DNA of 64,000 nt from Dictyostelium discoideum (GCA_000004695.1 CM000151.3:8352001-8416000); one strand, 5' to 3'; shown: positions 2,487-48,726, counted from the first letter of the stretch. Notes: generated by a model from the sequence alone, not told the origin. Made by a program: numbers and translations.

Positions 2487-2519
<33 letters not shown>

Positions 2520-2613
2520 TTTTTTTTTAAAAACTGGATATTATTTTTTATTTAATTATTTTTATTATTTTTAGAAATCTATGTATATTTATATTTTTTT
2601 TTATATTTTCTTG

Positions 2614-4626
2614 TTATTGAATTTCCATCCATTCATCTGAAAATTTTGTAAATAATGGAAAAGTTTCAGAAATATGTTCAAAACTTGAAATATAATTATA
2701 AGTAATTGATCCTAAAGTTTCAGGACCTATATAAAGATAATGAACTGTATCATTTTCATTATATTCTTTTCTAGTAAAAATTTCAGACCAAATACTCTTA
2801 TTTGCATGTGTTTTGAAAGTATCACGTTCTGAATTTAATTTTAAAGTGATTTGAACAATAAAGAATCTAAGATAAACTGCATCCCAAATATAAAATTCAA
2901 TATCTTTATTATTTTGTAAAAAGTTATAACAATTGTTATTAATATAATTATTGATATTAATATTCTTTATATTATTATTATTACTATAATTATTAATTGT
3001 TGTTATTGAATGTGGTAACATAATGAAAGAGTAGTTCCAATCAATTGCATTATCATCGAAACAGAAATCATATAAATGCACAGTTCTAATTAAATTTATT
3101 CTTAAATGTTCAATCTTTGGAAACTCGAATTCGTTTGCTGTAAATATAGTTTTCAAATTAAAATCTTTTTCATCTAGAATTTTATTTGATAAATAACTTT
3201 TAGCAGCATTGAAACAAATATCACGAGAATAATAATTAAATCCAATTGAAAATATTTTCTCAATGAATTCATTTAAAAACGATTGATAAGCGTCACCCAA
3301 TTTCTCTTTCAATACTGTCAATGCAATTGGTGATTTTGCTCTAATAATTGAATAACCACCTTTTTTATGAAAACATGGTTCTTCTGGTAAATATTGGGTT
3401 ACCATAAATTGTGATAATATCAATATCTTTTCATTATCAATTGGTAACATCAATTCTAACAATGCCATACTTCTCTCAAACAATACCTTTTGCTCATTTG
3501 TTAATTTTTTGAATACAATTTCTAAATCCCCTTTATACTCTCTATATCTATTGGAATAATAATTATCAAATAATCCTTTACAATTATTTTTAAATTTATT
3601 TTCACATGAAATAAAATAATTTAATTCACCCCTAATAATAATAATAATAATAAAATAAAAAAATTAATATATTTTGTATTATTATTTTGTATTTATTATT
3701 ATTAAAGTTATAAATACTTACGGTATCATATTTGTAGTATAACAAATTTTTGATTGGAAATATAGATTATTTAACCATGATATATTGTTTTTAAATTTAT
3801 TTAAATTAAATGATCTCCATTCTAAAAATTCATTAAATTGGAAACCAACATTCATTGAATAAATTGTCCATGAATTTTGATTATTATTATTAACAAAATT
3901 CACCAATGGTTGATTCTTACCCTCAGAAATTGAAACAACTACCAAATCACATTTTATTAAATTTTGAATTATCTCTGGTAAATTATATGGAAATTTGGTT
4001 TTCTTACTATTGATTAATGTTGTTGTAATTAGTGTATGTTGATCAAAAAATATAAAAAAATTTAATTCTTTACTTTTATTATAAATCGAAAGATCTTTTA
4101 AAAATAATAAAATATTTTCAAATGTAAATGATTTTTTTTTTGAATTTCTCTTTTTACCACCACCACCACTATTAATTGATTTTATAAAATCCTTTTTCCA
4201 CCAATTTGATACGAATTTGTCATTATTTATTTCATAAGCAATGAAAATTGAAAATATGAATAAGAAATTGGCTTCTCTTTCATTTTCATATTTAAACCAA
4301 TTTCCATAATCTGGTATATAAACACATCTATTATTATTATTAATATTATTATTATTTGGTTTTTTGCTTTCTATGTAATTTGAACTTTCGATTTCGAATA
4401 ATCCATTTCTAATTTCGGATACAATTTGATAGATTGAATATGATTTACCAATACCACTGACACCTTTTATTAAAACATTTTTATTTTCAAATCTTTCTCT
4501 ATTTAACAGTTCTTTTATATTTGATGTTTCACTAGTATTTTGGATGAAAATATAATCACCACCACTAATACCATTTGAAACAAAATCTAAACTATTTCTT
4601 GGAAATATTGAAAATAATGGATCCAT
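2614..4626 (-). CDS. P-loop NTPase domain protein of unknown function; 2 exons, complement(join(2614..3631,3722..4626)), about 640 aa
   Basis: ATG at 4626. Walker A motif KNVLIKGVSGIGKSYS near the N-terminus. Minus-strand donor GTAAGT begins at plus-strand 3721; acceptor ...ttattattag| with the downstream exon starting at 3631. Phase-2 junction joins the track ORFs 3718..4626 and 2614..3483 into one frame. The 90-nt intron is AT-rich. Confidence 0.6.
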
Positions 4627-7556: not shown

Positions 7557-10500
7557 TTATGAGTAGTTGGTGTTATATGAGCAGTATGGTATGAAGTGTT
7601 CCGGGATGTTTATGGTCATGAGTTTCGAGTTCCAGTTGTGGCTGAATTTTTCGAGTCTTCTTTTTATTGATGCGGTCCGATTGATTGACTCTCGGTTATC
7701 AGTGCATCTTAGTTCTTGACGTAGTTGTTTTTCTACTATCTTTCTTGTTCTATCCCATTCGGCATCTCTCGCTTTTTTGATTTTATGAATTATTTGGTTC
7801 TCTGTTATTATTGTAGTGTTATCGTTGAATTTTATTTGATTTCTTCTGTACCATATCGATTCCATAATGGCTCCTATCAGATTTGATGAGAATGGTGTGA
7901 GTAGTTTTCCGAGAACTTTTTCGCTCCATGGACCGTGGTAAGTGTTGTTGGAGTCTTTACAGACCTTTTGATAGATTGAGTCGATATTCTGTTTTATTGA
8001 TTTGCATTCGAAGAAGATGTGCATAGACGATTCTTCTTCTTTACATGAGTGGCAATTCTCCCCATGGTGTTTTGGAAGTGCCTTGAGTAGATATCTCCAT
8101 GCTAAGTCTCTTCCTTTGATAGTTGTGATTGATCTGGCTTCTCTAAATGGTAGAATTGGGTGATTAATGTTCTTTTGAATCAGTTTTTGACCTGTTGTTG
8201 GCTGGTGTTTGTTCCATCCCTTGTATTTGATATCCATCATGTTTCTATAGATTACTTTTAATTTTTGTTTGTTTTCGTATTTGGGTTTGACTTGGTTTAG
8301 TTTGAGAGTTATTCGCTCTCTTGGGTGGTGCAACAACTTCCAGGCTTTCCAGCATTTGATATGAATCCTTGATAGTGAGTTTTCTTTTTCCGACTTCCAG
8401 ACTTCCATATGTGGAGGGCAGTTCTGGTCGTCTTTTTCTCTGAGGTATTGTTCGTATATCCATGCTTTCTGGGCATTGGATCTGGTTGCCATATTCCAGA
8501 GTTCCAGGCCTCCAATTTCATAGTCTCTTCTGCTCCTTTCTTTTGAGATAGCCCACCTGTCCCCTTTGAATAACATGTTGGCATTAACGTTCTCCAGTTT
8601 CTTTATGTCATTTATTTCGTTGATGTATAGTTGGAATGTTAGTTGGGACAGGAGGTATGATTTGAGGATTGTGATTCTACCTTTTAGCGTTGATGACACG
8701 CTCGAGTAGCATTTTGTGAGGTTTTCCAGTTTGTTCACCGTATCATCTACTTTGCTTATTACACCTTTGCGGTTGAAGAAAAAGCCAAGATATCTTTCTT
8801 CTTCTTTCGCCCCAATTGTCTTATATTTGGTCTTTATCTTTGGGTTTTTAGTGATGCATACACATTTATTATCGTTTATTTTTGCTGCTGTGGCTTGGCA
8901 AAATTTTATAACTTTCATATCCATTTTATCTGCGTCATCTATGTTACTGGCTAGTGTGACTGTGTCGTCTGCATATTGTCCAATCTTCATCGAATTGTTC
9001 TGATTGAGTTTTATGCCTATTATGGTATTGTCTTTTCTTATTGATGTTGATAAGCATTCACATACTATAGCGAAGAGAGTTGGTGAAATTGGGTCGCCCT
9101 GTTTTGTACCTCTTCCTGCTCTGAAGGATTCAGAGAGTTGTCCATTTACCATGACCCTTATGTTGGTGTTCGTTAACATGCTTAGTATTGTGTTTGTTAT
9201 TTTCCGAGGGAACTTTAGATGGTTTAGAGTCCTTATTAACGCTTTATGAGATATTGAATCGAAGGCTTTTTCGAAGTCATAAAAGGTGATTATCGTGTTT
9301 CTATCACTCTTTTCCATTGCTAAATCCAAAGCTATAATGTTGTTGTGGAGTAGCCTTCCTGGTATAAAACCGTTCTGGTACTTTGAGATTATGTTTGGCA
9401 GGATTTTTAGTATTCTATTGTTGATTATTTTTGAGTAGATTTTGTAGTCTACGTTGAGTAACGTTATTGGTCTTCTGTTTGAGATTTCCAAGACATCCCC
9501 TTTACCTTTGTATATTGATGTAAGGATACCGTTCTTGAATTCTGTTGGAATTTCATTGTTTAAAAAGAAGTTGAATAGTTCTGTGAGGATTGGAATTAGT
9601 TTGTGTTGGTGGATTTTATAGAATGAAGATGTTATTCCATCTTCTCCTGGTGATTTACCTTCTGCTATCTTTTCTATTGCTAGCTTAACCTCATATTCTT
9701 CGATTCTGTCTTCCATCTCTGTTAATTTTTTTTTATCTATTGGTGGGTTCCAGGTGCTTAGAAGTTCTGTATGTGTTTCTTGGTCGCATTCTTTCTCTTT
9801 GAAGAGTGTCTCGTAATATTTTCTGAAGCAATCTGTTATTTCTTTTTGTTCTGTTTCGATTTCTCCATTGGATGGGTTCTTTATTCTGTGAATCTGGGAG
9901 CCCGAGTCTCTTTTTTTAAGAATAGATGTAAGGAGATTTGATGCTATTTCTTTATTGTTGATGTAGTTGATTGAGCTTTTGATCATTCTGTCTATTCTTT
10001 CTTCTTCTTGAAGTATTGTTATTTCGTTCGATATTGTTTCTTTTTCATATTTGTTTTTTGTTTTTGTGTGTTCATTTGCTAGATTTGATAGCGTTTTTTT
10101 TCTCTCTAGTATTCTTTTCTTTTCTGTTGTAATGCATTGTTTTTTTATTTTTTTTTTGAACTTAATCCAGTATTCCGTTATGTTAAGGTTTTTTCTTTTG
10201 GTTTCCTGGTAGTGGTCGATTATTTTTTCTATCTTTTTTATTGTTTTATCTTCTTTAATTATTATTGAGTTCATTTTCCATAGGGGTGATTTGTATATTT
10301 TTGTGAAATTTGGTATTTTGAAATCCATCACTACTATGTTATGGTCTGATTTGTTTATTTTATCTATTATCTTGTACGAGTGATTGAGTTGGTGCATCTT
10401 TGTTGATAAGAATGTTCTATCGATTAGTTTATCTTTGAAGGTTGTTTTAGTTGTTGAATTTGGTAGTATTTCGGTGAGTCCTACTTCCATCATTAGGAAT

Positions 10501-18653: not shown

Positions 18654-18753
18654 NNNNNNNNNNNNNNNNNNNNNNNNNNNNNNNNNNNNNNNNNNNNNNN
18701 NNNNNNNNNNNNNNNNNNNNNNNNNNNNNNNNNNNNNNNNNNNNNNNNNNNNN
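18654..18753. other. Assembly gap (100 N)
   Basis: Run of N in the sequence. Confidence 1.
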
Positions 18754-27877: not shown

Positions 27878-28741
27878 TTATTTATTTGAAATTTGATTAT
27901 TAAATAAACGTAATAAATTTCTTTCCAACATTGCAATTGTAACTTTACCAATTGTTGGAACTAAAATTGATTTCTCTTGGATTGATTCATCAACATTTAA
28001 ACAACCAGCGAAATTTATAACAATAGTACCATCTTGAATTAGGTCAGAGTTTACTTTATAGTTTGGAGAAGGTACACCCAATATTAGGATATCAGATTTT
28101 GAGATTGCTTCTTCACGTGTAACATTAGTTTCAGACATTTTAATAGTACCATGTCTTTTACCAGACTGAAATATGATGATGCCATTGATATCGATTGAAT
28201 ACACTATCGCACCGTCGTTTGCCAACATTGCAGCCAATGGACGACCCACGATTTCACTACGATTGACGATTGTCACAGTCTTACCTTTTAAATGCTCACC
28301 CATTGCTAATGATTTATCGTAGATTCCTAAATTATCAATTATCTTTACCATTGCCAATGGTGTGCATGGTATGACACATTTCTTGGTAGCGGTTTCGCCA
28401 TCCATGAAACGAATGTTGTGATAGAGATTGAAACGATTTTGGGTTGATAAACCTTCAATATCCTTAGTTGGACTAACAACATCTTGTAAATAAGAATCCA
28501 TCATACCTCCAAATACTGGATAATAAACTAAAATACCATGTACACATGAATCATTATTTGCTTCTATAATTAAATCCTCTAAATCAACTCTTTCAACTCT
28601 TTTCAATATAAATTCAATACCATCTTTTTGACATGCTAATTTTGTCCATTTTGAATAATCAATTGCACCTTGATCATCACTTGTTAAAAATGCAACAACT
28701 CTTTAAAAAAAAAAAAAAAATAGGTTAATTATTTTTAATTT

Positions 28742-28782
<41 letters not shown>

Positions 28783-28938
28783 CAGATTCGTGAAGGTTTT
28801 TTTTTTTAATATTTTAAATTACCTTGGTTTCCAACAATTTTTTGTAATTTGTTGTTTAACTTCCTCCCTAAAAAAGTTTGCAATGGGTGTAACATCAACC
28901 TTTCCTTTTTTATTTTGCATAATTTCTTTATATTCTTC

Positions 28939-28941
<3 letters not shown>
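27878..28941 (-). CDS. NAD-dependent 5,10-methylenetetrahydrofolate dehydrogenase, monofunctional fungal Mtd1-type; 2 exons, complement(join(27878..28700,28823..28941)), about 313 aa
   Basis: Collinear with S. cerevisiae Mtd1 (GILVYYPVFGG...YLQDVV...CTPLAMVKII...VNRSEIVGRPLAAMLANDGAIVYS...TIAMLERNLLRL). Exon 1 (MEEYKEIMQNKK...NCWKP) ends at donor GTAATT (28822). Acceptor ...tttaaag| has the exon starting at 28700. Phase 2. Confidence 0.75.
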
Positions 28942-28969
<28 letters not shown>

Positions 28970-29889
28970 ATTTATATGTACAAGTGCTTGTTTATTTATT
29001 AAAAAAAGATTTTTATTATTTGTAGATAATGAATTATTTTTTTAATGAGGTGGTGTTGGTTTTTTTTTTTTACAATAATGAAAAAAATTAATAAAACACT
29101 AAAAAGTAAAATAAAAAAAAAAAAATGAAATAAAAAAAAAAATAAAATAAAAAAAAAAAAATAAAATAAAAAATGTAAATAGGCGAAATCGGCGGTGTGT
29201 ATTAAAAAAACTAAAAATAAAATTCATTTTTTTTTTTTTTTTTTAAAAATTATGGTTAATGCTTAAACAGATAAAATATAAATCACGAAATCTCTTTTTT
29301 TTTTAATAATTATTATTAGTGTTAAAAATAAAAAAAAAAAAAAAAAAAAAAAAAGTTAGACATATTCTGCCTTTATAAATATACAGAAAAAAATTAATTT
29401 CTTTTAATCATTTTTTATTTATAAATATTTTTATTTTTTATTTTATATTTTATTTTATTTTTTTTTTTCTGGTTTTAGTTTATGATATTACTAATTAATA
29501 TCCAGAATGAAAACCACTTTATCAAATCGAATTTTTAACCCTAAAAAATATTTTTTTATTTTTTTTTTTATTTTTTTTATTTTCCTAATTCTTCTAATCC
29601 TAGTTCTATTAAGATAAAAAAAAAATATCTTAACTGACTTTTTCAAAAAAAAAATAAAAAATTAAAAAAAAATAAAAATAATTATATATTGACATAGTGA
29701 TTTTTCAAATAATTTCATATTTTTTTTTTATTTTTTATTTTTTTTATTTTTTTATTTTTTTTTAATATTAACCCAAATTTTTTTTTTTTTTACAAGTAAT
29801 TAAAAAAAAAAAATATAATTAAAATCTTTTCCCACACATAATCATTACAAATAACAAATAACAAATAATAATAATTTAATTATTAAATT

Positions 29890-31182
29890 ATGATAGAAGA
29901 TAAAGAAAATATTGAAAGAAAAGAGGGTACAGAGGTGAAAACCACTATTGATATAAATATTCAAAGTATAAAAGATGATGAAAATGGTATAAACGCAGCC
30001 ATTGTAACAGAGAGTATAACACAAGAAATTAGTACTGTTTCGCTTCAACAAAATAATTCCGATAATAATAATAAATTATTGAGTAGTAGCGAAAATTCAA
30101 TTAGTCAATTAGAACAATTATTATCAAAAGATGAATTGATAATAAATAATGAAGATAAAACAAATCCATTAATAATAACTACACAATTAGATAATAAAAA
30201 TGAAGTAGAGGAACTAGTAGTAGAAGGAGAGGAAGAAGATAATATAAAACAATTAACAAAGAAAGAAATTCTTGGTGTTTTATTAGTTGATAGTTTTTCA
30301 AATTTTTATATTCAAGATAGTATATTATTCCCACAAAACCAGACGGTAGGTGTTGATGGTGAAATAGAGAAAACTACAACAACAACAGGAATGCCAACAT
30401 TAAGTAATGATATAAATTTAACATCACCAACTTCAATCATTGGAAATGGTTATAAAGATAATGAAGTTACAAGTTTCTTAGTGAATGCTTTTCATTATCT
30501 TTCAATACCAATGACAGTTTTAAATTATCTATTATTAACGAATAAACAATCGATTAGTTCAGCAACTATATCAACATCAACATCAAAACAAATTTCAAAA
30601 GTTTCTTCATTCAGTTCAATTACATCCTTATTACATACACCAACATTAACAAGTTCAACATCAAATAGTAATCTATTAAATATTGTGGATTCTTCAAATT
30701 TTGAAATTACACCAACACCTTTATCACCATTAATATCACCACAGCAAACTACAATTACATCGAGCACCACCACCACCACCACTGCAATGTTAAAACCACA
30801 AAAAAATAAAGAAAATATATTACCAAATAAAGTTGATAAAAATATAATAATGGAATTGGAAATGTTATATGATAATCATTATAATATGGAAATATTTGAA
30901 TATTCTAAAAAAATTTCTCAAGCTCAAAATGATATAGATACAAAGAGTAAACTTTATTTTCAATATCTTTCAGATTTAACAAGGCGTTCACTGGCAATTT
31001 GCCCACCAAAATATTCAGATTTAATTACATCTTCATCACAAAACTCATCAACTTCAAATCAATTTTATATAACTATTCGTGAATCTGTTGAATATTTTTT
31101 AATTCAAAATTTATTTCATCAGTAGGTTATTATTTTTTTTATTATTATTAATTTTTATTATCATTTATTAATTTTTTTATCT

Positions 31183-31231
<49 letters not shown>

Positions 31232-33404
31232 ATTCCAAATTGACTATGATTTGGATTATCAATTTTCAAAAAGAGTTGAATCATTAAAATTTATAGAATT
31301 ATCACATTTAGGTGTAAATAATAATAATAGTAATAATGGTAATAATAGTGGTGGTAGTAGTAATCAATTCAATAAAGAATTATGTCCAACATTATTAAAA
31401 ATAAATGTTTATCAAACACCAATTGATAAACAAAGATGTTTAGCGAGAACATTAGTAAAACTTTTAAAAATTAATGGAGGTGAAGAATTATTATTACCAA
31501 ATTTAGTTTATTTAATACTTTTATCAAACCCACCAAATATTTATTCAAATTATAAATTTTTGGAGAAATTTATTGATCATGAAACTCAAAATCCAATTTA
31601 TGAATATTCTTTCTTACTATTTTCAATGGCAATTCAATTTATTGAAAAGTTAGATCATAATCATCTTTCAATTGATCCATTATATTTTCAATCAAAATTA
31701 TTTGAATATAATCAAAAAAACAATAATAATAATAATAATTTAGCTGCTACAACAACAAATACAACTACAACAACTACAACTACAACAATAGTTAATAATA
31801 TTAATAATTTAGAAATTTCAAATAATAATTTATCAGTTCAATTTTCAAATTTATTAATTAATGAACCAGATTTAAATAATAGTAATAATAATAATGAACA
31901 ATTAAATAATTTTTTAACAGATAATGAAAATAGATTTAAATTATTTAAAGAGAATAATAGAATTCAAACAATGATTGAATTATGTAAAAGTCAAATTACA
32001 GAAAATGAAATTGAAGAGTTATTATTAAAGTTTATATCAATTTCATTGATTAAAGAAAATCCTTCTTATCATTCATTGATTAGATATTCTTTAAAGAGAT
32101 TTTTCATTTATTATTTAGGTATTGAAAAGAATGTTTTCCTTTCAACAGAGATGCATACAATTGGTGCTTTACAAGATGATAATCAAACTAATGGTACTCA
32201 ATTGGATTTATTACCAGATGGTAGTTTAGCAAATAATGCAAATAACAATAGTTCAAATAAAGATAGAGCAATTAAAACTGCAAAGATTGCAGGTGCCGCT
32301 GTAACTGGTGCTGTTTTGGTTGGTATGACTGGTGGTTTAGCTGCACCTTTTATTGGTATGATGTTAAATTTCGTTGGTGCTGGTAGTATTGTTGCTGGTA
32401 TAACGGGTGCAACTGGTTTAAGTAGTGCTACAATGTTATCAGTTATTTTTGGTGCTGCTGGTGCTAAAGTCTCTGCCGGTGCTATGATTTCTGCAACTAG
32501 TGGTATTAAAGATTATCAAATTCATAAGATTAAAAGTCAAACTTCATTACATGCAATCATTGGTGTCTATGGTATTTGTAATGATATGGGTGGTGTTTCA
32601 GATTATTATCAAACCAAATCTGTATGGGATAGAGTCATTAGATCGGTAACCGATGATTATGGTGATATTTTCATTGTTGAATGGGAAAAGGAAGTAATGT
32701 TAAAATTAAAACAATTGGTATCAGAATATCAAGGGACCATCGTTCAAGGAGTTATTAGATCCGCTGCAACCAATATTATCTCTCAATCTTTAGCATCTGC
32801 ATTGGTACCATTATCAGTTTTAAAAGCTGCATCAGTTTTAGATAATCCATGGTCATTATTAAAAGATCGTTCAGAAAAGGCAGGAAAAGTATTGGCTCAA
32901 CAAATTATTGATGGTTATTTTGGAAATAGACCATTGACTTTGGTTTCAACATCAATGGGATCAAGAATGGTTTTCTATGCTTTGGAGGAACTTTATAATC
33001 AGTCTTTAACTAATCCAAAAATCTATTCACTCATTGAATCGGTTGTTTTCATTGGTTCACCAATAACATCGGATCAAAAACGTTGGAGTAAAATTTTAAG
33101 ATTAATAAGTGGCCGTATGGTTAATTGTTATACACCCAATGATTTACTCTTAAAATATGTTTGTCGTTCAATCAATTGTTTATCCGATGGTATTTTACCT
33201 GCTGCTGGTGTTGCACCAATTCATATACCTGGCTCAAGTTTAGTAATTGAAAATGTTGATCTTTCAAATCTTGTTAAAAGTCATTTAGATTATGAAAAAG
33301 AAGAAATACTTTGTAAAATTTTACAACATATTGATATTAATAATATTAAATATTGTTTACCAAAAATTTCACCATTATATAGTGGTAAGGTTTATGATAT
33401 TTAA
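29890..33404 (+). CDS. DUF726/TMCO4-family membrane protein with a long low-complexity N-terminal region; proposed 2 exons, join(29890..31121,31229..33404), about 1136 aa
   Basis: The downstream ORF carries the DUF726 hallmarks: a Gly-zipper TM cluster (AGAAVTGAVLVGMTGGLAAPFIGMMLNFVGAG...) and an abhydrolase-like core (LVSTSMGSRMVFYALEEL...VVFIGSPI). It has no in-frame ATG before residue about 125; the track start is TTG. The upstream ORF ends at a GTAGGT donor (31122) in the correct phase for the aaaaag| acceptor (31228), giving ...NLFH-H-LFQIDYDLDYQFSK... Confidence 0.55.
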
Positions 33405-33797
33405 AATTAAAAAATAAAATTAAAATTATTATTATTTAAAAATGTTTTTTTTTTTTTTTTTTTTTAAAAAAAAGAATAAAGAAATAATAAAATAATCTTT
33501 TTTTAAATAATCACTTTATTTTAAATTCTTATTAATTCAAATAAATTATATTGTCTACAATAACATATTTTTATCTTTTTTGTTATTTTTTTTTTTTTTA
33601 ATCAAAAATCTTTAAAATATAATAATATTGGAATCTATTTGAAAATCAGTTTGTTTTAGTAATTTTTTAAATAAAAAAATTTGATATTAAAATGAATTCA
33701 TTGTAATTTTTAGAATTTATTTATATATATTTTTAAAAAAAAAAAAATAAAAGAAAAAAATTTTATATATTTATATTATTTGTATTTTGTTTTTTTT

Positions 33798-35691
33798 TTA
33801 AAAATTTAAAGAATTAATTAAATCATCGCTTGTATGATTTGGAATTGTAACTTTTAAAGATGGATCTAATTCCATTGCTCTTTTAATTGTATTTTCAGCG
33901 TTATCATTATATGACCAAGAACGACGAGCAATACCATTATTAACATCCCAATTTAACATCATTCTAGCTTTTTCTTCTTGTAATTTACTACCACATAAAT
34001 AGAGACCAAAACCACCATTGATAGCTTCACCAAAACCTGTACCACCACCATTATGAATGGCAACCCAAGTTGCACCTCTAAATGAATCACCAATAACATT
34101 ATGAATAGCCATATCAGCACAAAATTGGGAACCATCTTTAATGTTTGAAGTTTCTCTCCATGGTGCATCAGTACCAGAGACATCATGATGATCTCTACTA
34201 ATTACGACTGGAGCTGATAATGTACCATCGGCAACAGCTTTATTGAAAGCAACTGCTAATTCTGAACGACCAATACAATCACTATAAAGGATACGAGCTT
34301 GTGAACCAACAACTAATTTATGTTCACCTGCTTGACTAATCCAAAGATGATTATCATTAAATTGTTGTTGAACATTCTTTGGTACACCTGGTTGAGATCT
34401 TAATTTTTCAATTAATTCTTTGGCGATACGATCGGTGATTTCTAAATCCTTTGGATTGCCACTGGTACAAACCCAACGGAATGGACCAAAACCCAATGAA
34501 AATATATCACCCATAATATCTTGTACATAGGATGGATAAATGAATTCTTTACCATCTGTGCCTGGTTTAATAATGTCAGCTTTTGCTCTTGATGCCTCTA
34601 ATAGGAAAGAGTTACCATAATCCCAGAATTTCATACCACGTGCAGAGAGTGCATTGATTGCAGTGGTATGTCTTCTAAGGGTTTCTTGTACCATCTCTTT
34701 GAATTTAGTAGGTTCTTGAACCATGAGACGATTTGATTCTTCAAACGAACATTGTACTGGATAATAACCACCATTGAATGGATTGTGTAATGAAGTTTGA
34801 TCTGAACCTAAATCCACAGTAATATCTTTCTCTTCTACTAATTTTTCCCAAAGTGTAACGACATTACCTTGATAAGCTATTGAAAGTGGTTTCTTTTCTT
34901 TACTGCAACTCTAACCCCGAGCAAATAATTCATTTAAATCTGAATATACCTCCATAACCCAATTTTGAGCGTGTCTCTTTTTAACTGCAGCTGGACTAAC
35001 CTCTGCAACAATACAAATTGCACCACAGATGTAGGCAGCTTTAGTTTGAGCACCACTCATACCACCCAAACCTGATGAAACAAATACTTTACCAATGAGT
35101 GATTCAACACCTAAATATTTTCTACCAGCATTTAATAGAGTGATGGTTGTACCATGTACAATACCTTGTGGACCAATGTAACAATAGCTTCCAGCAGTCA
35201 TTTGACCGTATTGTGTAACACCTTGTGCATACATACGTTCATAATCTTTATGGGAGGAATAATTTGGAATCACCATACCATTGGTAACGATAACACGTGG
35301 TGAACTTTCATTTGATGGGAATAAACCCATTGGATGACCACTATACATTGTTAGGGTTTGTTGATCTGTCATCTCTGAAAGATATTTCATGGTTAAATGA
35401 TATTGTGCCCAATTTTGAAAAACACTACCATTACCACCATAGGTTACCAATTCATTTGGAAATTGTGCAACCTCTCTATCTAAATTATTCATAATCATTA
35501 ACATAATCGATGCTGCTTGTCTTGATTTTGCTGGATATTCTTCAATTGGATATGCTTTCATCTCATAATGAGTTGGTCTAAATCTATACATATAAATATG
35601 TCCATATTTATTTAATTCTTCTAAAAATTCATTTGCTAAAATTGAATGTAATGAATTTGGGAAATATCTTAATGAATTTTTAATTGCTAAC

Positions 35692-35722
<31 letters not shown>

Positions 35723-35972
35723 AGATAAATAATAATAATAATAATAACAAATTTAAAAATAAAATAAAAAAAATTAAAAATTAAAAAGCGTGTTAGTTTT
35801 TTAAAATTTTAAATATTTAATAAAAGATATTTTAAATTTTTACCTTTTTTTCGTTTAATGTTAAATTAATTGGACGACCTGGAGCATGTGGTACAGTTGA
35901 ATCTAATCCTGGGTGCTCTGGTAATGGCTCAAAAGGAATACCTTTTGATAATGATGATAATAAATCTTTCAT
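33798..35972 (-). CDS. Urocanate hydratase (urocanase, histidine catabolism); complement(join(33798..35690,35844..35972)); contains an in-frame TAG at 34911-34913
   Basis: Exon 1 (MKDLLSSLSKGIPFEPLPEHPGLDSTVPHAPGRPINLTLNEKK) has donor GTAAAA at 35843 and acceptor at 35691. Exon 2 is collinear with bacterial HutU/human UROC1 (GHIYMYRFRP..., GGNGSVFQNW, QMTAGSYCYIGPQGIVHGT, GLGGMSGAQ, GTDAPWRETS, VAIHNGGGTGFGEA) apart from one amber codon at a residue position that is occupied in orthologues. Confidence 0.8.
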
Positions 35973-36209
35973 TCTTAATTAACTATGTTTAATATTTCAA
36001 ATAATGCTTGGTATCGAAAAAAGAAAAAAAAAAAAAAAAAAATGAATGATTTTTATGAAATTTCCAAACGAAAAAAAAAATAAAAAAAAAAAAAAAATAT
36101 AAAAAAAATTAATTATTTTTATTTTTCTTTATAAAAAATAATTTTAAAATAATTTTAAAATAATATTAAAACTAACCCCAAACACACATTTTATTATGTC
36201 GTTTGAATA

Positions 36210-36248
<39 letters not shown>

Positions 36249-36781
36249 CATGAAATATAAAAAAAAATAATTATTTTTAAATAAAAAAAAAATAAAAAAA
36301 AAATAATATTTTTGTTGACGAAATTAATTTAATACTAATTATAATTTTATTTGTTTTTAAGAGTATAAAATAAACCTATACCAATAATTAAAAAAATTAA
36401 ATATTTTGGTAATTTCGATTGGATATAGTAAATAAAAATATTAAAATAAAAATTAATTTAAATTTTGGTGGTTTCAAAATTTTATTTTAAATAATATTTT
36501 AAATAATATTTTAATAAAATTGTTTTAAAAATTAAAAAATTAAAATTAATTTGGGGCATTAAATAATATGAATTTGGCAAGAATTGAACGCTTGACCAGT
36601 TTATAGTTATGAGCAATTCTCAATAAAGAAATATTGAAAAAATTTTGTATTCATTTAATTATTTTTAAACTAATCAAAATTATTTAGTTAAATTATTGAA
36701 ATCCAATTCAAAAAAAAGTTAAATTATTGAAATTAAAATATAATAAATAAAGAAAATAATGGATTAATTTTCAATTAAAAT

Positions 36782-38718: not shown

Positions 38719-40199
38719 ATGAATAAAATTATAATATTAATAATAATATTATTTTTTAAATTTATTCAAAGTCAAATAGATATTATAGAAATTAAATCAG
38801 ATAATACACTCTATATAAAAAATCCAGAAAAATCAAAATCAGATTTTTGTAGTTTCTCTTTTACGTATCTAACAATTTTCCCAGAACCTAAATTTGAAAC
38901 TGAAGGATCTATAATAGGTATTTTCGAAAATGCCCCATTTACTCAATTATATTTACTAGCAAATGATACATGTTCTCTTAATGAATATATTATTCCAAAG
39001 ATTACTTTTGGTAATTATGTTTTTTCTGTAAAATCAAACTCAACATCAGGTGAAAAATTTTTATCTACTTATTTTTCATGTGAACGTATGTGTATTAATA
39101 ATTATTAAATAAAATAAATAAATAAATTAATAAATATTTTATTAAAATAAAATGTTTACTCTTTTTTATAGCAATTGATGTTTCAAAATTAAAATTTTCA
39201 TTTACCCCATATCCAATATCTCTAAGACATACACCTTATCAAAAGGGTGTTTTGAGAATTGTTGGATTAAATAGCTCATGCTCTTTAGAAAGTATACCTT
39301 ATTATCAATTACAAGATACTGGATTTGGTTATTATTATATACCAAACTTTAATGATTTTTCTTTGAATGATGAAAATGCAACTTTTCTTTTTTTTAATTC
39401 AAGTTATACAATGACAATTCCAACAATTTATAAAAGTAATTATACTATTTTTAATAAATCTTGTAAAAAAAAAAAAAAAAATAATAATAATTATTTATTT
39501 TTAGATTATAGTAATATTATTGGTGAAATAAAACCATATCCAAATAAGGATAATGTAATTAAATTAGGAAAGTATCAAGGCCCATTCTTTACATTTCAAA
39601 CTTATTTTAGTTCAGATGATACTCCATATTTTATAATAAAACCAGATTTTTCTCCTCCAGTTTTATTATATGGATCAGAGATAAATAATAGTTACACATA
39701 TGCAAATACTCAATCATTTGGTAATTTCAATGCATCTTTATACTCTCAAAAATTTAGTGAAGTAGTAAATGTTTATAATTTTCTTAAAAATGTTAAACGT
39801 GAGTATTGTTTAATTAAAAAAAAAAAAAAAAATAATAATAAAAAATTAATTATATTTTTTTATTTTTATTATTTTAGAATATAATTTGAGTGTTATGCCT
39901 TCAAGTGCAGATATATCATATAAAAATATTGGTAATTTTTCATTATTTACTATTGAAATTACAAATTCAGACCATTATGATTTCAGTAAATATGTTTATA
40001 TGATTAATTCATTTAGCTCTCCTTTATTGCAATGGCCTTATGGTTTTCTTAGTGGAAATAATAATAAGTATAATTTTCAAATAAGAGGTTTCAACTTACC
40101 CATACCAATGACTCAAACTTCTTCTTTTGTCAATATTAATTTTTTAAATAGTAACGGTATAACCCTTGGTATAAATTATAATACTATTGGTATGTGTTT

Positions 40200-40249
<50 letters not shown>

Positions 40250-40627
40250 ATTTAAATTCTAAACTTTTTTTTTACCAAATAAAAGAACCAGGATTTACAG
40301 AAATTGTAATGTTTAATTTTTCTCATTTATTTGACTCTACATATATTTTTAGAATAACAGTAAAACAAAATGGTGAAAATCTAGCAATCAAAGAGATTTT
40401 ATTAGGAACTCGATCATTTTCTTTCGATAAAATGATACCTGGTGGTAATAAAACTTTTGCAACATTTGAAATTGTTTATGATTATAGAAATGAATATTTT
40501 GAAACTATTGCTTTAGTAAATTCTCTTAATTTAATAAACACTTACCATAATGGTGATTGGTATTCAATTAATCCAATGTTACAACTTAAATTTCCGAATT
40601 TAAATGGTTAGTTATTTAGTTATTTAG

Positions 40628-40698
<71 letters not shown>

Positions 40699-40716
40699 TA
40701 TATTTTAATATTAATT

Positions 40717-40753
<37 letters not shown>

Positions 40754-43307
40754 GAAATTGATATCTTTTCAATAAAAGATATATCGTTTTTATATAATAA
40801 TGTTATAGTTTCAAATGAAAATGTATCAAATATAATTTATTTTAATATTTCAAATTTAGATAGTCACAATATACCTATATTTTCAATGAAATTAAATGAT
40901 CCAGTTTCAGAGAAAAATTTGAAATATTATTATTCAACATGGAGTGATAAATTGAAAATGTTTCAAATTGAATTCTTTATTCCTGCAAATACTTTATCAG
41001 GTATCTTACCTTATATTTTATTTTTATCACATACAGTACTTCTTAAAAGTTCTATTTTATCTTCTCAATTATATATAAAATCAAAATGTATGTATTTTTA
41101 AATAAAAAAAAAAAATAAATAAAAAAAACTAATTTTATATTTTTATAGATTTAGATAGTTATGGACCAATATTTAGTGAATTTAAAAATAAAACAATTAA
41201 CAGTACAACATTTGGATGGGAATTTTATATTGAAGATTCAATTAATGGATTTGATCATGGTGAAATTATAGTTAGAGGTGATTTAGATAGTTCGATTTAT
41301 AAATTTCAAATTTCATCATTAAATAATTTATTAATTGGTAATAAATATAGAGGAAAATATGAAATATTAATTAATTTACAAACTAATGTTTGTGCATCAC
41401 AAAATTATATAATAACAAATGTAAATTTATATGATACACAATCGAATTTAGCAACTTTTTCAAAATTAGATAATAATCAACAAATATCATATAAAACACC
41501 ATTTATAAATTATATGGATAATCCAGATATTTTAAAACATTTTAAAGATTGTGGAAACTATGAAGATGTAACACCACCAAAAGTAAACCATTTTGAAATG
41601 AAAAAGAATGGTAGTGAAATACTAGTATTTGATATATTGGTTGAAGATATTGAATCTGGTTTAAAGTATGACCAATATCCAATTGTATATTTAACAAGTG
41701 AATATTTAGATGTGGTTGAATGTATTTCAGAAATTATATCAATTAATTCAACCAATGCTAAATATAGATGTGAAATGAAGGTACCATATGGGTTTGGCTA
41801 TGGTTGTGGTGTATTAGTTGGTGTTTATGGTTTTATTAATAATGGAGGTTTTTATTCAGGTTTTGAAGAAAATTATGATGGTTCAATCATGGATTATAGT
41901 ATTTATCCAAATTTGGTAATTACCAATACAAGTTCTATAACTTCCAATGGTGATGGTAGTTTATGGATAATGGGTAGTGGATTCAATGGTTATATCAATG
42001 TTAAAGTTTATTATTCTGATACCAAATTAACGCCACCATCAGATAATTTGTCACCAATAATTATTTATTATTCAGCACTAATCATTACAGGATTAAAAGC
42101 AACTGATAAACCATTTACTATTCAAATTGAAATGACTAAAAGTTCAGAAACATATCTATCAAATATTTATACAGTTAATCCAGTTGTATTTGATTATAGT
42201 TATGTTGAACCAACAACAACACCATTACCAACAACTCCACCACAAAAATGTATAGGTTCACCAGAATGTGGTGGTTCAGGTCATGGTTATTGTAATGGGT
42301 TACAAGGATGTATATGTTATTCGCCATGGGTTGGATTGGGTTGTACTTCAAAAGTTGTAGTTATACCACCACCAAAATTAAATTCAACAACACCAACATC
42401 TGAATTACCAGTATTAGGTGAAGGTGAAAATAATAATAATAATAATAATTCAACAAATATATTATTTAAATCATTAATATCAATTGTATCATTAAGAGAA
42501 TTAAATTTTCAAGGTAATGTTGTAAATGAATTTAAATTTGAAAAATGGATTTATTCAGAAATCAATTCAAATAAACATCAATATTTTACAAATATTTCAG
42601 TATCACCAACAGTAAACTTTTTAACAACAAGTACTACTGATATTAAAGTAACAATTCAATGGTTCCCAAATCAAACTACAATAGAATTTGCTAATCAATC
42701 ATTAATAATGAATCCATCAACTGTTAAATATACAATTGAAGTTGGTAGTTATAATTTTAAGAATAAATTAAATCAACTTCAATTAGTTTTATCAGCATCA
42801 ATGGATTCAAGTAATACTAACAACATTTGTTCAAAATCTGAATTTGGTAATACAAATTCTGCAGACAATTCAAATTATGTTAAAATTCAAGTTGATAATC
42901 ATTCATTGTATGGTAGATTTATAAAGAGAGCGATAATTGATTCTCAAGTGATATCAATTGAAAATGAACAATTAGATTCTTCAATGAATCCGATTAATAA
43001 TGGATCATCATCCCAATCATTCATTGGTATTACAATTCCATATTATTTATATAATATAATACTTGATCCTGATTTCTCTGTATTAATAGATAGTAAAAAA
43101 GTTTCATCAAATGATGAAAACTCAATTTGTTCAAAATCATCATCAAATTCATCACTGACTGTTTCTCAATTAGCTGGTATCATTATAGCTTCTGCCGTCA
43201 TATTTTTAAGTATTTGTGCAGCTTTAATATTTATTTTAATTAAAAAAAGAAAACATACATTATTATTAATAATGGCAAAAGATATAGTTTTAAAAAGAAA
43301 GAAATAA
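38719..43307 (+). CDS. Large type-I membrane glycoprotein, paralog A: signal peptide, Cys-poor N-terminal repeats, IPT/TIG-like domain, EGF-like Cys module, TM helix, short basic tail; 7 exons, join(38719..39085,39172..39435,39505..39798,39878..40189,40286..40606,40755..41087,41149..43307); possibly Tgr (tiger)-family-like
   Basis: All six introns are phase 1 with GTATGT/GTAATT/GTGAGT/GTTAGT donors and (t)nAG acceptors; every junction is in frame. IPT-like motif YPNLVITNTSSITSNGDGSLWIMGSGF. EGF-like CIGSPECGGSGHGYCNGLQGCICYSPWVGLGCTS. TM LAGIIIASAVIFLSICAALIFILI followed by KKRKH. Confidence 0.65.
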
Positions 43308-43973
43308 ATAAATTAATTTTATTTTTGAAAACTAATAAAAAAAAAATAAAAAAAAAAAAAAAAAAGAAATGACCTAAAACCACATTTAGTATTCAAAATT
43401 ATCTTTTTAAATTTACTAAAAAAAATATATATAATATAACAATATTTTTTTTTTTTTTTTTTTTTTTTATTAATATTACTAATATCACACTCACAAAATA
43501 ATAATAAAACCATAAAAAAGTACATACCAAAAAAAAAAAAAAAAATAAATAAAACAACCAAATAATTTAAAAAAGTTGTTTTTTTTTTTGGTTATGAAAA
43601 TAGATCATTGATCTTTCTTTTATTTTTTTTTATATATTTTCTCATTTTTTTGTACTTTTCTTTGAAAAAATAAAAAATATATCAGATTTTTAAGTAAGTC
43701 CTCAGAATGTGCAAAGAACCACAAAAAAATTTTGAAAAGTGTAAAGAAAATTACTGGTTTCATATTTTTAAATAAAAATTGAAAATACCCATAAAAAAAA
43801 ACCCCATAAAATATCCAAAGATATTTTTTTAAAAATTATTAAAAAAACATTTTTTTTGAGAACCGCATTCTTTTCTTTTCACTTCATTTTTCAATCCTTT
43901 TTTTTTTTATTTTTAAATTTTGATATAAAAAAAAATTTTATTTTATTTTTACCAAAATGATTTCATAAATATG

Positions 43974-43974
<1 letters not shown>

Positions 43975-44048
<74 letters not shown>

Positions 44049-44085
44049 AATAAATAAAATAAATAAATAAAATAAATAAATAAAA
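43975..44085. repeat. (AAAT)n microsatellite immediately upstream of paralog B. A similar (TATTTATT)n run at 40617-40700 lies inside paralog A intron 5.
   Basis: Direct reading. Confidence 0.9.
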
Positions 44086-44088
44086 AAA

Positions 44089-47000
44089 ATGAAAAATATA
44101 AATATTATTATTTTATTATTTTTATTAAATGTTTATAATATCAATTGTCAAAGTTTAAATATAATTGATGTATCTCTTGGGAGTAATAGTTTATATCCTT
44201 TGACATCGGATCAAATTGTTTGTTATCTTCAATTAGAAATTCAAGTAATTTCCACATTTAGTGGTTGGTATTCATTTAGTATACCATATTCAAGTGATCC
44301 TTATTTCCCAAATTCAAATTATGTTTTAACATCTCCCGTTTCAAATTCAACTAATACGATTTTTATATATCAAAATCAACCAATACCTTATGGGACTCAT
44401 TCATTTACGATATATTCAGATTTACTACTTTATAATGGTACAGGTTTTGTTCAAATCCTTACAAGTTCTTTTCAAACTGAATATACATGTAATAGTAAGT
44501 ATGAAAATTATATATATACAAATAAATTATTTTAAAAATGATTTTTTTATTAATCACAAATAAATAAATAATAATAAAAAAAAAAAAAAAAGGAATTGAT
44601 GTAAATTTAATACAATTAAATTTCATACCTACAATAAGATCATTTGATCCCAATTCAATGAGAATGGGTGTGTTAAAAGTAAATGGATTACATAATAGTT
44701 GTACTCTTTCGACATCAATTGGTTTTTTACCAGATGGAGGTTCAAATAATTATTGGGTTTTAAATTTTCAAACTCCTTTATCAATTGCTACCAATTCTTT
44801 AAATTTAACAATTTGGTTTGCTGATAAAACTTTTTATATTGATATACCGTCAATATATAAAAGTAGGTAAATTAATTTATTATTATTATTATAATTATTT
44901 TTATTGAATGATTATTTTAAATTATTAATTAAAATTTATTAAGCATTTATTGGTAGCTTTAGTCCTATTACACTATATCCAAATCAAATTAATATTACTA
45001 GATTTGGAATTAATGAATTTCCATTATTCTCTTTTACTGTGGATTCTAAAGATTATCCATATATATTTTATGATAGAGATGTAAGAAGTCCAGTAGTAAT
45101 TGCATATGGTTCAAATGATAATTATACGTATATTGGTATTTTAAGTAATTCTGGTGCATTAACTCAAACTGGTATATATGCACTACAAGGTGACAATATT
45201 AATTTAATTAATAATGTTACAACAGATATTTCAAGTAAGATTAATTATATATATATAAAAAGGATAAAAATTATAATTTATAATATTAATAGGTCATTTT
45301 GATTAATAATAATAATAAATAAATAGGCTTTGTTACAAATGTGATACCATCAACAGGAACCGTTTCAAATTTTTCAAAGATTGGTTCATCAAATATATTT
45401 TCAGTATCATTTGATGGATTTCAAAGTTATGATTTAAATGATTACCAAATAACATTTCAAACTTTATATTCAATAACTCAATGGCCATTTGGTTTCTCTG
45501 GATCAAATAAGAATTTTACATTTGATGCATCATTTTTATTGTCACAAAACTCATCATTAGGAGATCAAAGCATGTTATCAATTTTTCCTTTAAATAATTA
45601 CGGAACTCAATTTAGTGTATACATACCTTTAAATTACCCTGAAAATGGTGGTATGTATTATTAATAATTATAATTTTATTGGGTTTATAATATATATTTA
45701 TTATTCTTTATATTTTTTTTTTAAAAAAATGATAGTAAGTTCACGTATTATTATTACAGATTTTAAAGTGATTCATTTGTTTGATTTCAAATATATTGTT
45801 AGAATGGCCTTTATAATTAATGGTCAACCTTATCCTTTGACATCTATTTCAATAAATGATAAAATATATAAATATGAAAATTTGGCATCAGGTGATTTGA
45901 GTAATGGTGTTTTTGAATTTATTTGGGATTATAAATTCTACATTAATACGATATCCATTAGAACTTTTGCAAATAACGTTTATACTTTAAATTCAAATGA
46001 TTTTTACTCAATAGGCCCAAATAAAAGAATTACTTTCCCTACTTTTAAAAGTAATTATAAATTTATTTATATTTTTATATATTGATTATATATATACTAA
46101 CCAATTAATTTATTATTATTATAATAGCATATGATATTAGTTCAATAAAAGATATTACCTTTTTATATAATAACGTCAATATAACAAATAAATCAGTTTC
46201 AAATATAATGTATTTCAAAATTAATGGATTTAATCCACAAAATCAAACTGCACCAACAATTTGTCTTTTATTAGTGGACCCAGTTTCAACATTTGCTCCT
46301 ACATTAGAACCAGATTCTGGAAAATATTGTTCGAAATGGAATAAAGTTATGGGTGTATTTCAAATTGAATTTATTATACCTTCAAATACACTTTCTGGAG
46401 TTTTACCATACAATTTAATATTTAATCAATATTATTCAATTGAAAGTTCAACACTTTCAAATTCTTCACAACTCTTTATATATTCAAATTGTATGTATTT
46501 TTTTAAAAAAAAAAAAATAATAAAAAAAAAAAAAATTATTAACTTTTAATTTCTATTTTTATAGATTTTGATGCTTATGGACCAATATTTAGTGAATTTA
46601 AAAATAAAACAATTAATAGTACAACATTTGGATGGGAATTTTATATTGAAGATTCAATTAATGGATTTGATCATGGTGAAATTATAGTTAGAGGTGATTT
46701 AGATAGTTCGATTTATAAATTTTATTTAACAATAAATAATTTATTAATTGGTAATAAATATAGAGGAAAATATGAAATATTAATTAATTTACAAACTAAT
46801 GTTTGTGCATCACAAAATTATATAATAACAAATGTGAATTTATATGATACACAATCAAATATAGCAATACATACAAGATTGAATGGTTATAAATATGATT
46901 CGGTAAAAACACCTTTTATAAATTATTTAGATAATTCAGACATTTTACTATTTAATTTACAATGTGGTAGTTTTATTGATGATACTCCGCCACTATTAAA

Positions 47001-48726
47001 ATCATTTGAAATGATTAATTTAATAAATGTAAATCAAAGTTTAATATTTAATTTTGAAGCACAAGATATTGAATCTGGTTTAAAGTATGCTCAATATCCA
47101 ATTGTTTATGCAACCACTTTACATACTGGTATAATTGAATGTGTTTCAAAAATTGTATCAATTAATTCAACCTATGCTAAATACAGATGTGATATGGAAT
47201 TACCTTTTGGCTTTGCTTATGGTCATGATGTAATTTTCACAGTTTATGGGTTTGTTAATAATGGTGGTTATTATTCTGGTTATTCATATGATAAGTTGGT
47301 TGAAATGGGGTTAAATCATAGTATCACATCAATGAATATATATTGGAAATTAGTGATTACCAATTCAAGCTCAATAACGCCAAGTGGTGGAGATTTATGG
47401 GTAATGGGTAAAAGTTTTTCAAATTTTATTTTTAAAAGTGTAAATGTAATTTATTCAGATACTTCATTGACACCTGATAATTTAAAACCAATTGATAGTT
47501 CATTCTATAGTAGTGTATTTTTAATAAGTGGTATTAAAGCAACCAATAAATCATTTACAATTCAAATTATTTCAACAAATGGTAATTCAAATATTTATAC
47601 AGTTCAACCAATTAATTTCCTTTATGATTATATTGATACAAATCAACCACCACCAACAAACCCACCACAAAAATGTATAGGTTCACCAGTATGTGGAGGT
47701 TTAGATCATGGTTATTGTAATGGGCTACAAGGATGTGTATGTTATTCGCCATGGGTTGGATTAGGTTGTACTTCAAAAGTTGTAGTTATACCACCACCAA
47801 AATTAAATTCAACAACACCAACATCTGAATTACCAGTATTAGGTGAAGGTGAAAATAATAATTCAACAAATATATTATTTAAATCATTAGTATCAATTGT
47901 ATCATTAAGAGAATTAAATTTTCAAGGTAATGTTGTAAATGAATTTAAATTTGAAAAATGGATTTATTCAGAAATCAATTCAAATAAACATCAATATTTT
48001 ACAAGTATAAATGTACCATCAACAACATTAAACTCGAATGAAACTACTAGTACTAATATTATGGCAACAATTCAATGGTTCCCAAATCAAACAAATATTC
48101 AATTTGCTAATCAACTATTAACAATGAATCCATCAACTGTTAAATATACAATTGAAATTGGTAGTTATAATTTTAAGAATAAATTAAATCAACTTCAACT
48201 AGTTTTATCAGCATCAATGGATTCAAGTAATACTAATAACATTTGCTCAAAATCTGAATTTGGTAATACAAATTCCGATGATAATTCAAACTATGTTAAA
48301 ATTCAAGTTGATAATCATTCATTGTATGGTAGATTTATAAAGAGAGCGATAATTGATTCTCAAGTGATATCAATTGAAAATGAACAATTAGATTCTTCAA
48401 TGAATCCAATTAATAGTGCATCATCATCTCAATCATTCATTGGTATTACAATTCCATATTATAGATTTGGTATTACACTTGATCCTGATTTCTCTGTATT
48501 GGTTGATGATAAATCTGTTTCAAGTGGTGATGATTCCATTTGTTCAAAATCATCATCATTAACCAATGGTCAATTGGCTGGTATTATAGTTGGTGCCACT
48601 ATATTTGCAAGCATTTGTATTGTTGCTTTAATTATTTTAATTAAAAAAAGAAGACATCTCCTATTATTATTAAGAGCAAAAGATATAGTTTTAGCTGTTA
48701 GAAAACCAAATTATTCAAATAATTAA
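44089..48726 (+). CDS. Large type-I membrane glycoprotein, paralog B (tandem duplicate of paralog A, same 7-exon phase-1 structure); join(44089..44494,44593..44862,44944..45234,45327..45650,45736..46050,46128..46490,46565..48726)
   Basis: Exon-by-exon collinear with paralog A (135/89/96/107/104/120/719 codons versus 122/87/97/103/106/110/718). N-terminal exons are about 30-40% identical. The last roughly 800 bp of the final exon, including the EGF-like module and TM, is nearly identical to paralog A at the nucleotide level. Confidence 0.65.

Follow-up and report, generated by a model that had tools for sequence, protein, structure and literature searches.

Two tandem genes on chromosome 2 of Dictyostelium discoideum AX4 raise the question of how paralogues that are strongly diverged over most of their length come to carry nearly identical DNA in restricted parts of one exon. 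The genes, here called A and B, lie within a stretch of 64,000 nucleotides (GCA_000004695.1 CM000151.3:8352001-8416000), referred to below as the window, from the first letter of which all coordinates are counted unless another assembly is named. Gene A (XP_642466.2 / Q54Z87) occupies positions 38719-43307 and encodes 1349 amino acids, and gene B (XP_642467.1 / Q86AX2) occupies positions 44089-48726 and encodes 1376 amino acids. Both are on the + strand, arranged head-to-tail with a gap of 781 bp, in DNA of approximately 80% A+T. The predicted spliced open reading frames have no internal stop and match the AX4 proteins exactly, in agreement with an initial annotation, made from the sequence alone, that had placed a head-to-tail pair of paralogues here. 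The results indicate that A and B are most probably tandem ComC-like genes, old duplicates, in which two segments of exon 7 have undergone recurrent interlocus (non-allelic) gene conversion, a reading to which a probability of approximately 0.88 is assigned.

The seven exons of A (38719-39085, 39172-39435, 39505-39798, 39878-40189, 40286-40606, 40755-41087 and 41149-43307) have counterparts in the seven exons of B (44089-44494, 44593-44862, 44944-45234, 45327-45650, 45736-46050, 46128-46490 and 46565-48726). All 12 introns are phase 1 with GT..AG borders, 61-148 bp long and 90-96% A+T. Five of the six intron positions fall in the same columns of the protein alignment and the fourth is displaced by three columns, consistent with the shared seven-exon, all-phase-1 architecture described earlier.

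Nucleotide alignment of A with B returned a single long match spanning exons 6 and 7. A sliding-window identity profile revealed that divergence is not uniform and that identity is clustered in two blocks of exon 7, not one. Exons 1-6 of A (38719-41087; B counterpart 44089-46490) encode a putative signal peptide and a fast-evolving all-beta distal ectodomain, and are only 31% identical to B at the protein level. This value is within the 30-40% previously estimated for the N-terminal two thirds of the proteins, although the region so diverged comprises the N-terminal 47% and identity is already 55% in the middle of exon 7. Block 1 (41159-41435; B partner 46575-46848), which begins 10 bp inside exon 7 and encodes the N-terminal part of DUF7035, is identical at 268 of 274 nucleotides (97.8%) with a protein identity of 94%. 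It is followed by the unconverted middle of the exon (41436-42229), encoding the remainder of DUF7035, DUF7034 and a putative IPT/TIG-fold domain, where identity falls to 66% for nucleotides and 55% for protein. Block 2 (42230-43045) is identical at 752 of 804 nucleotides (93.5%), with a protein identity of 94%, and is split by a divergent patch. Block 2a (42230-42591; B partner ∼47655-48004) encodes the EGF-like DUF7949, a linker containing an (AAT)n indel and the first part of ComC_SSD, with an identity of 96.9% across 42230-42565. The patch (∼42592-42665; B partner 48005-48081) lies inside ComC_SSD, is paralogue-specific and not homogenized, and has a nucleotide identity of 79% (measured over 42566-42665) and a protein identity of 64%. 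Block 2b (42666-43045; B partner 48082-48461) encodes the core of ComC_SSD at 94.5% nucleotide identity. The final 262 bp (43046-43307; B partner 48462-48726), encoding the juxtamembrane stalk, transmembrane helix, basic tail and stop codon, are unconverted, with identities of 73.7% for nucleotides and 67% for protein. The mosaic suspected by the initial annotation is therefore real, and the short NNNN indel that it reported was recovered as a 12-bp (AAT)4 indel at A 42431-42442, inside block 2. The limits given for the near-identical block were wrong: it spans 42230-43045 rather than the terminal ∼800 bp of exon 7, it is interrupted by the patch, it stops short of the transmembrane helix and basic tail that had been included in it, and block 1 had been overlooked.

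Synonymous divergence and lineage grouping in exon 7

Syntenic loci were compared from five further assemblies: L001 and L002, both labelled D. discoideum, L003 (D. cf. discoideum, GCA_054859205), L004 (D. dimigraforme, GCA_054859025) and L005 (D. citrinum, GCA_054859325). Both copies are carried by AX4 and four of these assemblies; D. dimigraforme, with B only, served as outgroup. The synonymous divergence (dS) of flanking housekeeping genes from AX4 was 0.06-0.09 for L001 and L002, 0.08-0.13 for L003, 0.30 for D. citrinum and 0.32-0.36 for D. dimigraforme. Typical strains of D. discoideum are reported to be ∼0.3% apart (bioRxiv 10.1101/2025.10.22.684067), and L001, L002 and L003 are best treated as sister lineages. 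The A orthologue of L003 (L003:6825-9275) is a pseudogene that lacks A nucleotides 738-3017 and is thrown out of frame by the loss of 29 bp at A 42553-42581; its remnants are annotated as two separate genes of 200 and 492 amino acids. In D. dimigraforme (L004:1-24898) the B orthologue stands alone at the syntenic locus, the 10 kb on either side of it yielding no trace of A.

Synonymous and non-synonymous (dN) divergence were estimated by the method of Nei and Gojobori, between A and B of AX4 unless stated otherwise. Outside the blocks dS was 0.89 in exons 1-6, 0.70 in the middle of exon 7 and 0.55 in the region of the transmembrane helix and tail, while it was 0.05 in block 1, 0.057 in block 2a and 0.16 in block 2b. 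The pooled synonymous differences were 18 per 204 sites in the blocks and 291 per 592 sites elsewhere (Fisher p = 8e-28). In block 2a, dS between A and B was 0.00 in L001 and 0.014 in L002. Between B of D. discoideum and B of D. dimigraforme, dS in the same blocks was 0.25-0.42, above that between A and B. Since paralogues in the blocks differ less than orthologues of different species, the results indicate that the paralogues are younger than the species within the blocks and much older outside them. The divergence between A and B (dS ∼0.9) predates the D. dimigraforme split, and thus A was either lost from that species or is located elsewhere in it. A GENECONV-like permutation test on 1687 polymorphic sites with 10,000 shuffles found runs of concordant sites of 21, 18 and 15, compared with a permuted maximum of 12 (p < 1e-4).

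The grouping of the sequences also differed between blocks and controls. In control segments A and B were reciprocally monophyletic and 26-37% apart, whereas in the blocks the distances among all A and B copies of the D. discoideum complex were 1-8%, and D. dimigraforme B fell outside this group. The two D. citrinum copies were 1.3% apart in block 2a and 0.3% apart in block 2b, compared with block 2 distances from the AX4 orthologues of 5.6-8.1% for A and 6.0-7.8% for B. Among quartet sites of AX4 and D. citrinum, 30 in block 2 grouped the sequences by species and 2 by paralogue, while in the middle of exon 7, the patch and the transmembrane/tail region combined 202 grouped them by paralogue and 4 by species (p = 2e-31). 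The counts by species and by paralogue were 12 and 0 in block 2a and 18 and 2 in block 2b; those by paralogue and by species were 13 and 2 in the patch (42592-42665) and 46 and 1 at the 3' end (43046-43307). Block 1 of D. citrinum, with A and B 12% apart, has had no recent conversion. Grouping in block 2b was further examined from distance matrices with bootstrapped nearest neighbours, in which A and B of L003 were mutual nearest neighbours in 100% of bootstraps. Over the 321 nucleotides of 42690-43010, A and B of this lineage differ by 0.6% (99.4% identical) despite the pseudogenized state of A, which shows that the identity is not due to selection on A.

Variants private to single lineages allowed the direction and extent of exchange to be evaluated. 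AX4 alone has 41379C, 41384T and 41388G, which are common to A and B. The presence of A-type bases at 41334-41340 in AX4 B indicates transfer from A to B, and the presence of B-type AACC instead of the (AAT)n run at ∼42441 in A of L001 and L002 indicates transfer from B to A. An A-type stretch at 42213-42235 is present in B of L002 and partly also in B of L001. The two copies are identical throughout ∼42350-42480 in L001 and L002 only, and throughout ∼42700-42990 in L003 and D. citrinum only. Together, the shared variants private to lineages and the varying tract ends indicate that conversion has taken place more than once and in both directions, in tracts of some 100-350 bp. The collapse of dS in the blocks, the species-wise quartet sites and the independent recurrence in D. 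citrinum and three assemblies of the D. discoideum complex bear out the gene conversion that the initial annotation had proposed.

Domain composition and evolution of the ectodomain

By exact-sequence look-up, the two products correspond to D. discoideum AX4 entries that bear the name 'EGF-like domain-containing protein'. The ComC_SSD model of Pfam (PF22933) matched A with 62.9 bits and B with 63.2 bits (cut-off 24), DUF7035, DUF7034 and DUF7949 were above cut-off in both, and DUF7743 was significant in B only. The order in the protein is a putative signal peptide, an all-beta distal ectodomain of ∼630 amino acids encoded by the six phase-1 exons, DUF7035, DUF7034 and the putative IPT/TIG-fold domain, followed by the EGF-like DUF7949, the ComC supersandwich domain, a transmembrane helix and a short basic tail. 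Hydropathy has a peak of 3.0 at residue 1308 in A and a peak at residue 1331 in B, with a hydrophobic N-terminus, placing the transmembrane helix of A at residues 1308-1328 (∼43179-43241). A type I membrane topology is predicted, with a putative signal peptide deduced from hydropathy, one C-terminal transmembrane helix and a short cytoplasmic tail. Each protein has 27-29 N-glycosylation sequons.

An exhaustive search returned 787 cluster representatives, of which 367 had E ≤ 1e-30 and most were ∼1350-1400 amino acids long, and the named relatives were dictyostelid without exception. A word-indexed protein search gave just 3-16 matches and no named ComC; the family became visible by the exhaustive search of representatives. 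In 33 sampled relatives, DUF7949 was found in 33, DUF7035 in 32, DUF7034 and ComC_SSD in 31 each and DUF7743 in 20. The family is ComC-like and not Tgr, a likeness drawn from domain models. DUF7949, with its conserved cysteines, is evidently the EGF-like part, which substantiates the EGF-like module described previously; matches to EGF_TEN, a teneurin-type EGF model, were present in 9 of the 33 relatives. No TIG or EGF family of Pfam matched full-length A or B at E ≤ 1.

The IPT-like motif on which a tentative assignment to the Tgr (tiger) allorecognition proteins had been based sits in a domain of ∼95 residues between DUF7034 and DUF7949 (PF28405/DUF8390 in precomputed tables), at residues ∼900-990 of A (∼41960-42227). 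The isolated domain of A matched Pfam TIG at E = 0.008 with 16.6 bits, below the cut-off of 20.9, and that of B gave no match; a TIG match was found in one of the 33 relatives, at 5e-8. The AlphaFold2 model of the domain had a predicted local distance difference test score (pLDDT) of 85 and Foldseek matched it to generic immunoglobulin (Ig) folds, while a profile of the domain found nothing meaningful among sequences of the Protein Data Bank. The motif therefore lies in a plausible IPT/TIG-fold domain, of which A and B are each modelled to have one, although the TIG match is sub-threshold in A and absent in B. The model of the N-terminal 620 residues is a string of beta-sandwiches (pLDDT 73) for which structure matches were generic only. 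When the six N-terminal exon modules were compared with one another, profile against profile, no internal repeat homology emerged (hhalign probability ≤ 3%), and the idea that one exon corresponds to one repeated Ig unit is unsupported in sequence.

The evolution of exons 1-6 was evaluated by comparison between lineages, of AX4 with the two related assemblies L001 and L002. In this comparison dS was 0.037-0.041 for A and 0.071-0.074 for B, against 0.063-0.089 for flanking genes, and dN was 0.035-0.044, against 0.002-0.012 for the flanks. The resulting dN/dS was ∼1.1 for A and ∼0.5 for B, compared with 0.03-0.16 for housekeeping genes; over the longer distance to D. citrinum it was 0.53 for A and 0.44 for B, compared with 0.03. 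Since the synonymous divergence of exons 1-6 between these lineages does not exceed that of the flanks, there are no deep allelic lineages; of the elevated polymorphism that the initial annotation suggested looking for, only a raised dN was found. The diversification it proposed for the distal ectodomain holds only as fast protein evolution (dN/dS 0.4-1.1), a pattern that fits fast-evolving surface proteins under relaxed constraint or episodic positive selection. Gene A seems to be dispensable, as it is pseudogenized in L003 and missing from the syntenic locus of D. dimigraforme.

The seven-exon structure was projected in frame, with GT/AG borders, onto the orthologues of L001, L002, D. cf. 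discoideum, D. citrinum and D. dimigraforme, and projection of the AX4-type exons was free of internal stops in four other assemblies. The D. citrinum annotation joins A and B into a single protein of 2673 amino acids (P0172; L005:3001-13189), which looks like an annotation artefact because exon projection reveals two intact genes, with the A stop codon at 7648-7650. The annotated B protein of L002 (P0008, 1375 amino acids) is five amino acids shorter than the projected AX4-type model; at intron 2 (L002:16492-16568) it reads IYKSSPITLYP compared with IYKTFIGSFSPITLYP in P0007, another intron 2 splice site having been used by the annotators. In L003 the urocanase and tetrahydrofolate-dehydrogenase genes are inverted and downstream of B (L003:15494-20995), whereas in AX4 they are upstream of A (28000-36400). 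Genes of the CfaA_B_C family are upstream of the A remnant in L003, and the rearrangement relative to AX4 has breakpoints on either side of the A/B pair. Intron 5 of A contains a long (TTTA)n-type microsatellite (40608-40735), the reverse complement of which, (AAAT)n, is found just 5' of B (43936-44085); the two give an inverted BLAST match of ∼130 bp at 88-94% identity that is probably mere simple-sequence similarity. A run of 100 N at 18654-18753 is a gap of the reference assembly outside the gene pair. No further paralogues were found within the window.

Weighing of the alternatives

The sequence of events most consistent with these results begins with a duplication before the split of D. 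discoideum and D. citrinum, after which A and B exchanged tracts of ∼100-350 bp repeatedly and in both directions, only at the start of DUF7035 and in the EGF-like module and ComC_SSD, all within exon 7. The segments converted would be those that are most conserved in the family and that have kept enough identity to seed a heteroduplex, and the tracts would end at the diverged islands formed by the middle of exon 7, the patch at 42592-42665 and the transmembrane/tail region. Several points weigh against gene conversion as the full explanation. Block 2 is the most conserved region of the whole family, as judged from the family consensus, and the G+C content of third codon positions (GC3) is 0.03-0.11, an extreme A+T codon bias; these features imply that purifying selection accounts for some of the high identity. 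Within the block 1 core (41159-41290), B of D. dimigraforme and B of AX4 differ at 3 of ∼130 positions, compared with ∼16% in the adjacent part of the exon, and the core is more conserved than expected from protein conservation alone; part of the block 1 identity may thus be due to constraint. No signature of GC-biased conversion was detected, GC3 of the blocks not being raised. A third paralogue elsewhere in the genome may also have acted as donor.

An improbable alternative is that the partition is kept by selection and does not follow passively from sequence similarity, with the membrane-proximal EGF/ComC_SSD module and the beginning of DUF7035 homogenized and set against a fast-changing paralogue-specific patch, transmembrane/tail region and distal ectodomain, and with A and B a functionally coupled pair. 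The patch (B 48005-48081) is paralogue-specific in every lineage despite converted tracts on both sides, and its dN between A and B is close to its dS (0.26 and 0.23 over 42566-42665). Orthologues have hardly changed in it, and A of AX4 has no non-synonymous difference there from A of L001 or L002. Selection may shield the patch from conversion, or the patch may be too diverged to pair. If selection did keep the partition, A and B could for example share a cis partner through the homogenized EGF/ComC_SSD module while differing in rapidly changing distal binding surfaces, and would then represent another recognition-type system of Dictyostelium besides Tgr, to which it would be unrelated.

It is very unlikely that A and B are a Tgr-like allorecognition pair, with balancing or diversifying selection on the distal ectodomains and variation fed by conversion. 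Consistent with such a pair are the one plausible IPT/TIG-fold domain, the high dN and lineage-level dN/dS of exons 1-6, and the loss or pseudogenization of A in some lineages, which recalls the birth-and-death dynamics of tgr genes. The Tgr-like assignment made previously did not survive the domain searches, in which no Pfam TIG was above threshold and the domain set was of the ComC type. Furthermore, the genes are head-to-tail and not head-to-head with a shared promoter, and lineage dS (0.04-0.07) does not exceed that of flanking housekeeping genes (0.06-0.09). The dN/dS drops to ∼0.5 over the longer distance to D. citrinum, and the value near 1 for A fits relaxed constraint equally well, A being a pseudogene in one lineage.

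Purifying selection alone, by which the most constrained parts of the genes together with extreme codon bias would give near-identical DNA with no exchange, is a highly improbable explanation. It could draw on the conservation of the C-terminal region within the family, on the low GC3 and on the block 1 core, where B of D. discoideum and B of D. dimigraforme are still 97-98% identical. It does not account for paralogue dS of 0.05-0.16 in the blocks, below both the saturated 0.55-0.89 elsewhere and the inter-species 0.25-0.42, nor for the clustering of paralogues by species or strain and the near identity of a pseudogene with its intact partner. A single chimeric origin, in which one event of partial duplication or unequal crossing-over gave A or B its 3' part and divergence afterwards was uneven, has just as little probability. 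Collinear blocks within one exon and a tandem arrangement that favours unequal exchange would be in keeping with such an origin, but the blocks are flanked and interrupted by diverged segments (dS 0.55-0.70) and the tract limits vary by lineage (42213-42235, ∼42350-42480 and 42700-42990). That the sequences group by species in D. discoideum as well as in D. citrinum demands separate events after speciation, contrary to a single origin. That the AX4 paralogues were collapsed or cross-assembled in the blocks has a negligible probability in spite of the N run in the window (18654-18753) and the short-read cross-mapping reported among close paralogues of Dictyostelium gene families (bioRxiv 10.1101/2025.10.22.684067), since the mosaic occurs with lineage-specific differences in four other two-copy assemblies on contigs of 0.2-4.9 Mb.

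Comparison with known systems

A and B are annotated but unstudied genes; no literature was found on the accessions XP_642466.2 and XP_642467.1 or on 'ComC supersandwich'. ComC is an EGF-domain protein with a signal peptide and a transmembrane segment (PMC4931340), and aberrant aggregation is listed for loss of comC in Table 1 of PMC2873529, which cites Kibler et al. 2003. A and B share with the ComC family the ComC_SSD, DUF7035, DUF7034 and DUF7949 domains above Pfam cut-offs, in an architecture and length found in 31-33 of the 33 relatives. They differ in that a developmental phenotype is described for comC only, and a function for A and B would follow by analogy from family membership, according to which the proteins may be cell-surface adhesion or signalling molecules, as ComC.

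In two recent papers, Tgr proteins are defined by a transmembrane segment with repeated IPT/TIG and Ig E-set domains, and tgrB1, tgrC1 and tgrB2 are described as extraordinarily polymorphic. Many tgr genes are in head-to-head pairs, with a shared promoter for the tgrB1/tgrC1 type, and mosaicism of tgrB1 and tgrB2 has been ascribed to interlocus conversion or recombination, with pseudogenization (bioRxiv 10.1101/2025.10.22.684067). Common to the two systems are dictyostelid type I surface glycoproteins composed of Ig-like beta-sandwich domains, with one IPT/TIG-type fold predicted in A and B, and clustered paralogues with mosaicism, pseudogenization and signs of interlocus conversion. A and B differ from tgr in having one sub-threshold TIG match, ComC-type domains, a head-to-tail order and no excess synonymous divergence, and the comparison corrects a tempting mis-assignment to Tgr allorecognition.

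The A/B pair provides a clean, well-bounded case of recurrent short-tract conversion in an A+T-rich protist genome, with mapped tract ends and independent replicates in sister species, and could be used for studying conversion tract length and the identity required to start conversion in Dictyostelium. It also advises caution in short-read variant calling, orthology assignment and phylogeny within the very large ComC-like family (787 cluster representatives). By itself the case raises no new biological question.

It is well established that tandem paralogues can evolve partly in concert through interlocus gene conversion of short tracts, for example in primate gamma-globin and major histocompatibility complex genes. 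The A/B pair resembles these systems in the mosaic of low-dS tracts within old duplicates, the species-wise grouping inside the tracts, and the bidirectional, recurrent events bounded by diverged sequence. It differs in the lack of a GC-biased signature and in the limitation of conversion to two segments of one exon, sparing the transmembrane/tail region and a patch of ∼75 bp. Overall, the comparison identifies A and B as a clear but ordinary instance of gene conversion, a further case of a familiar process within a family that is already annotated.

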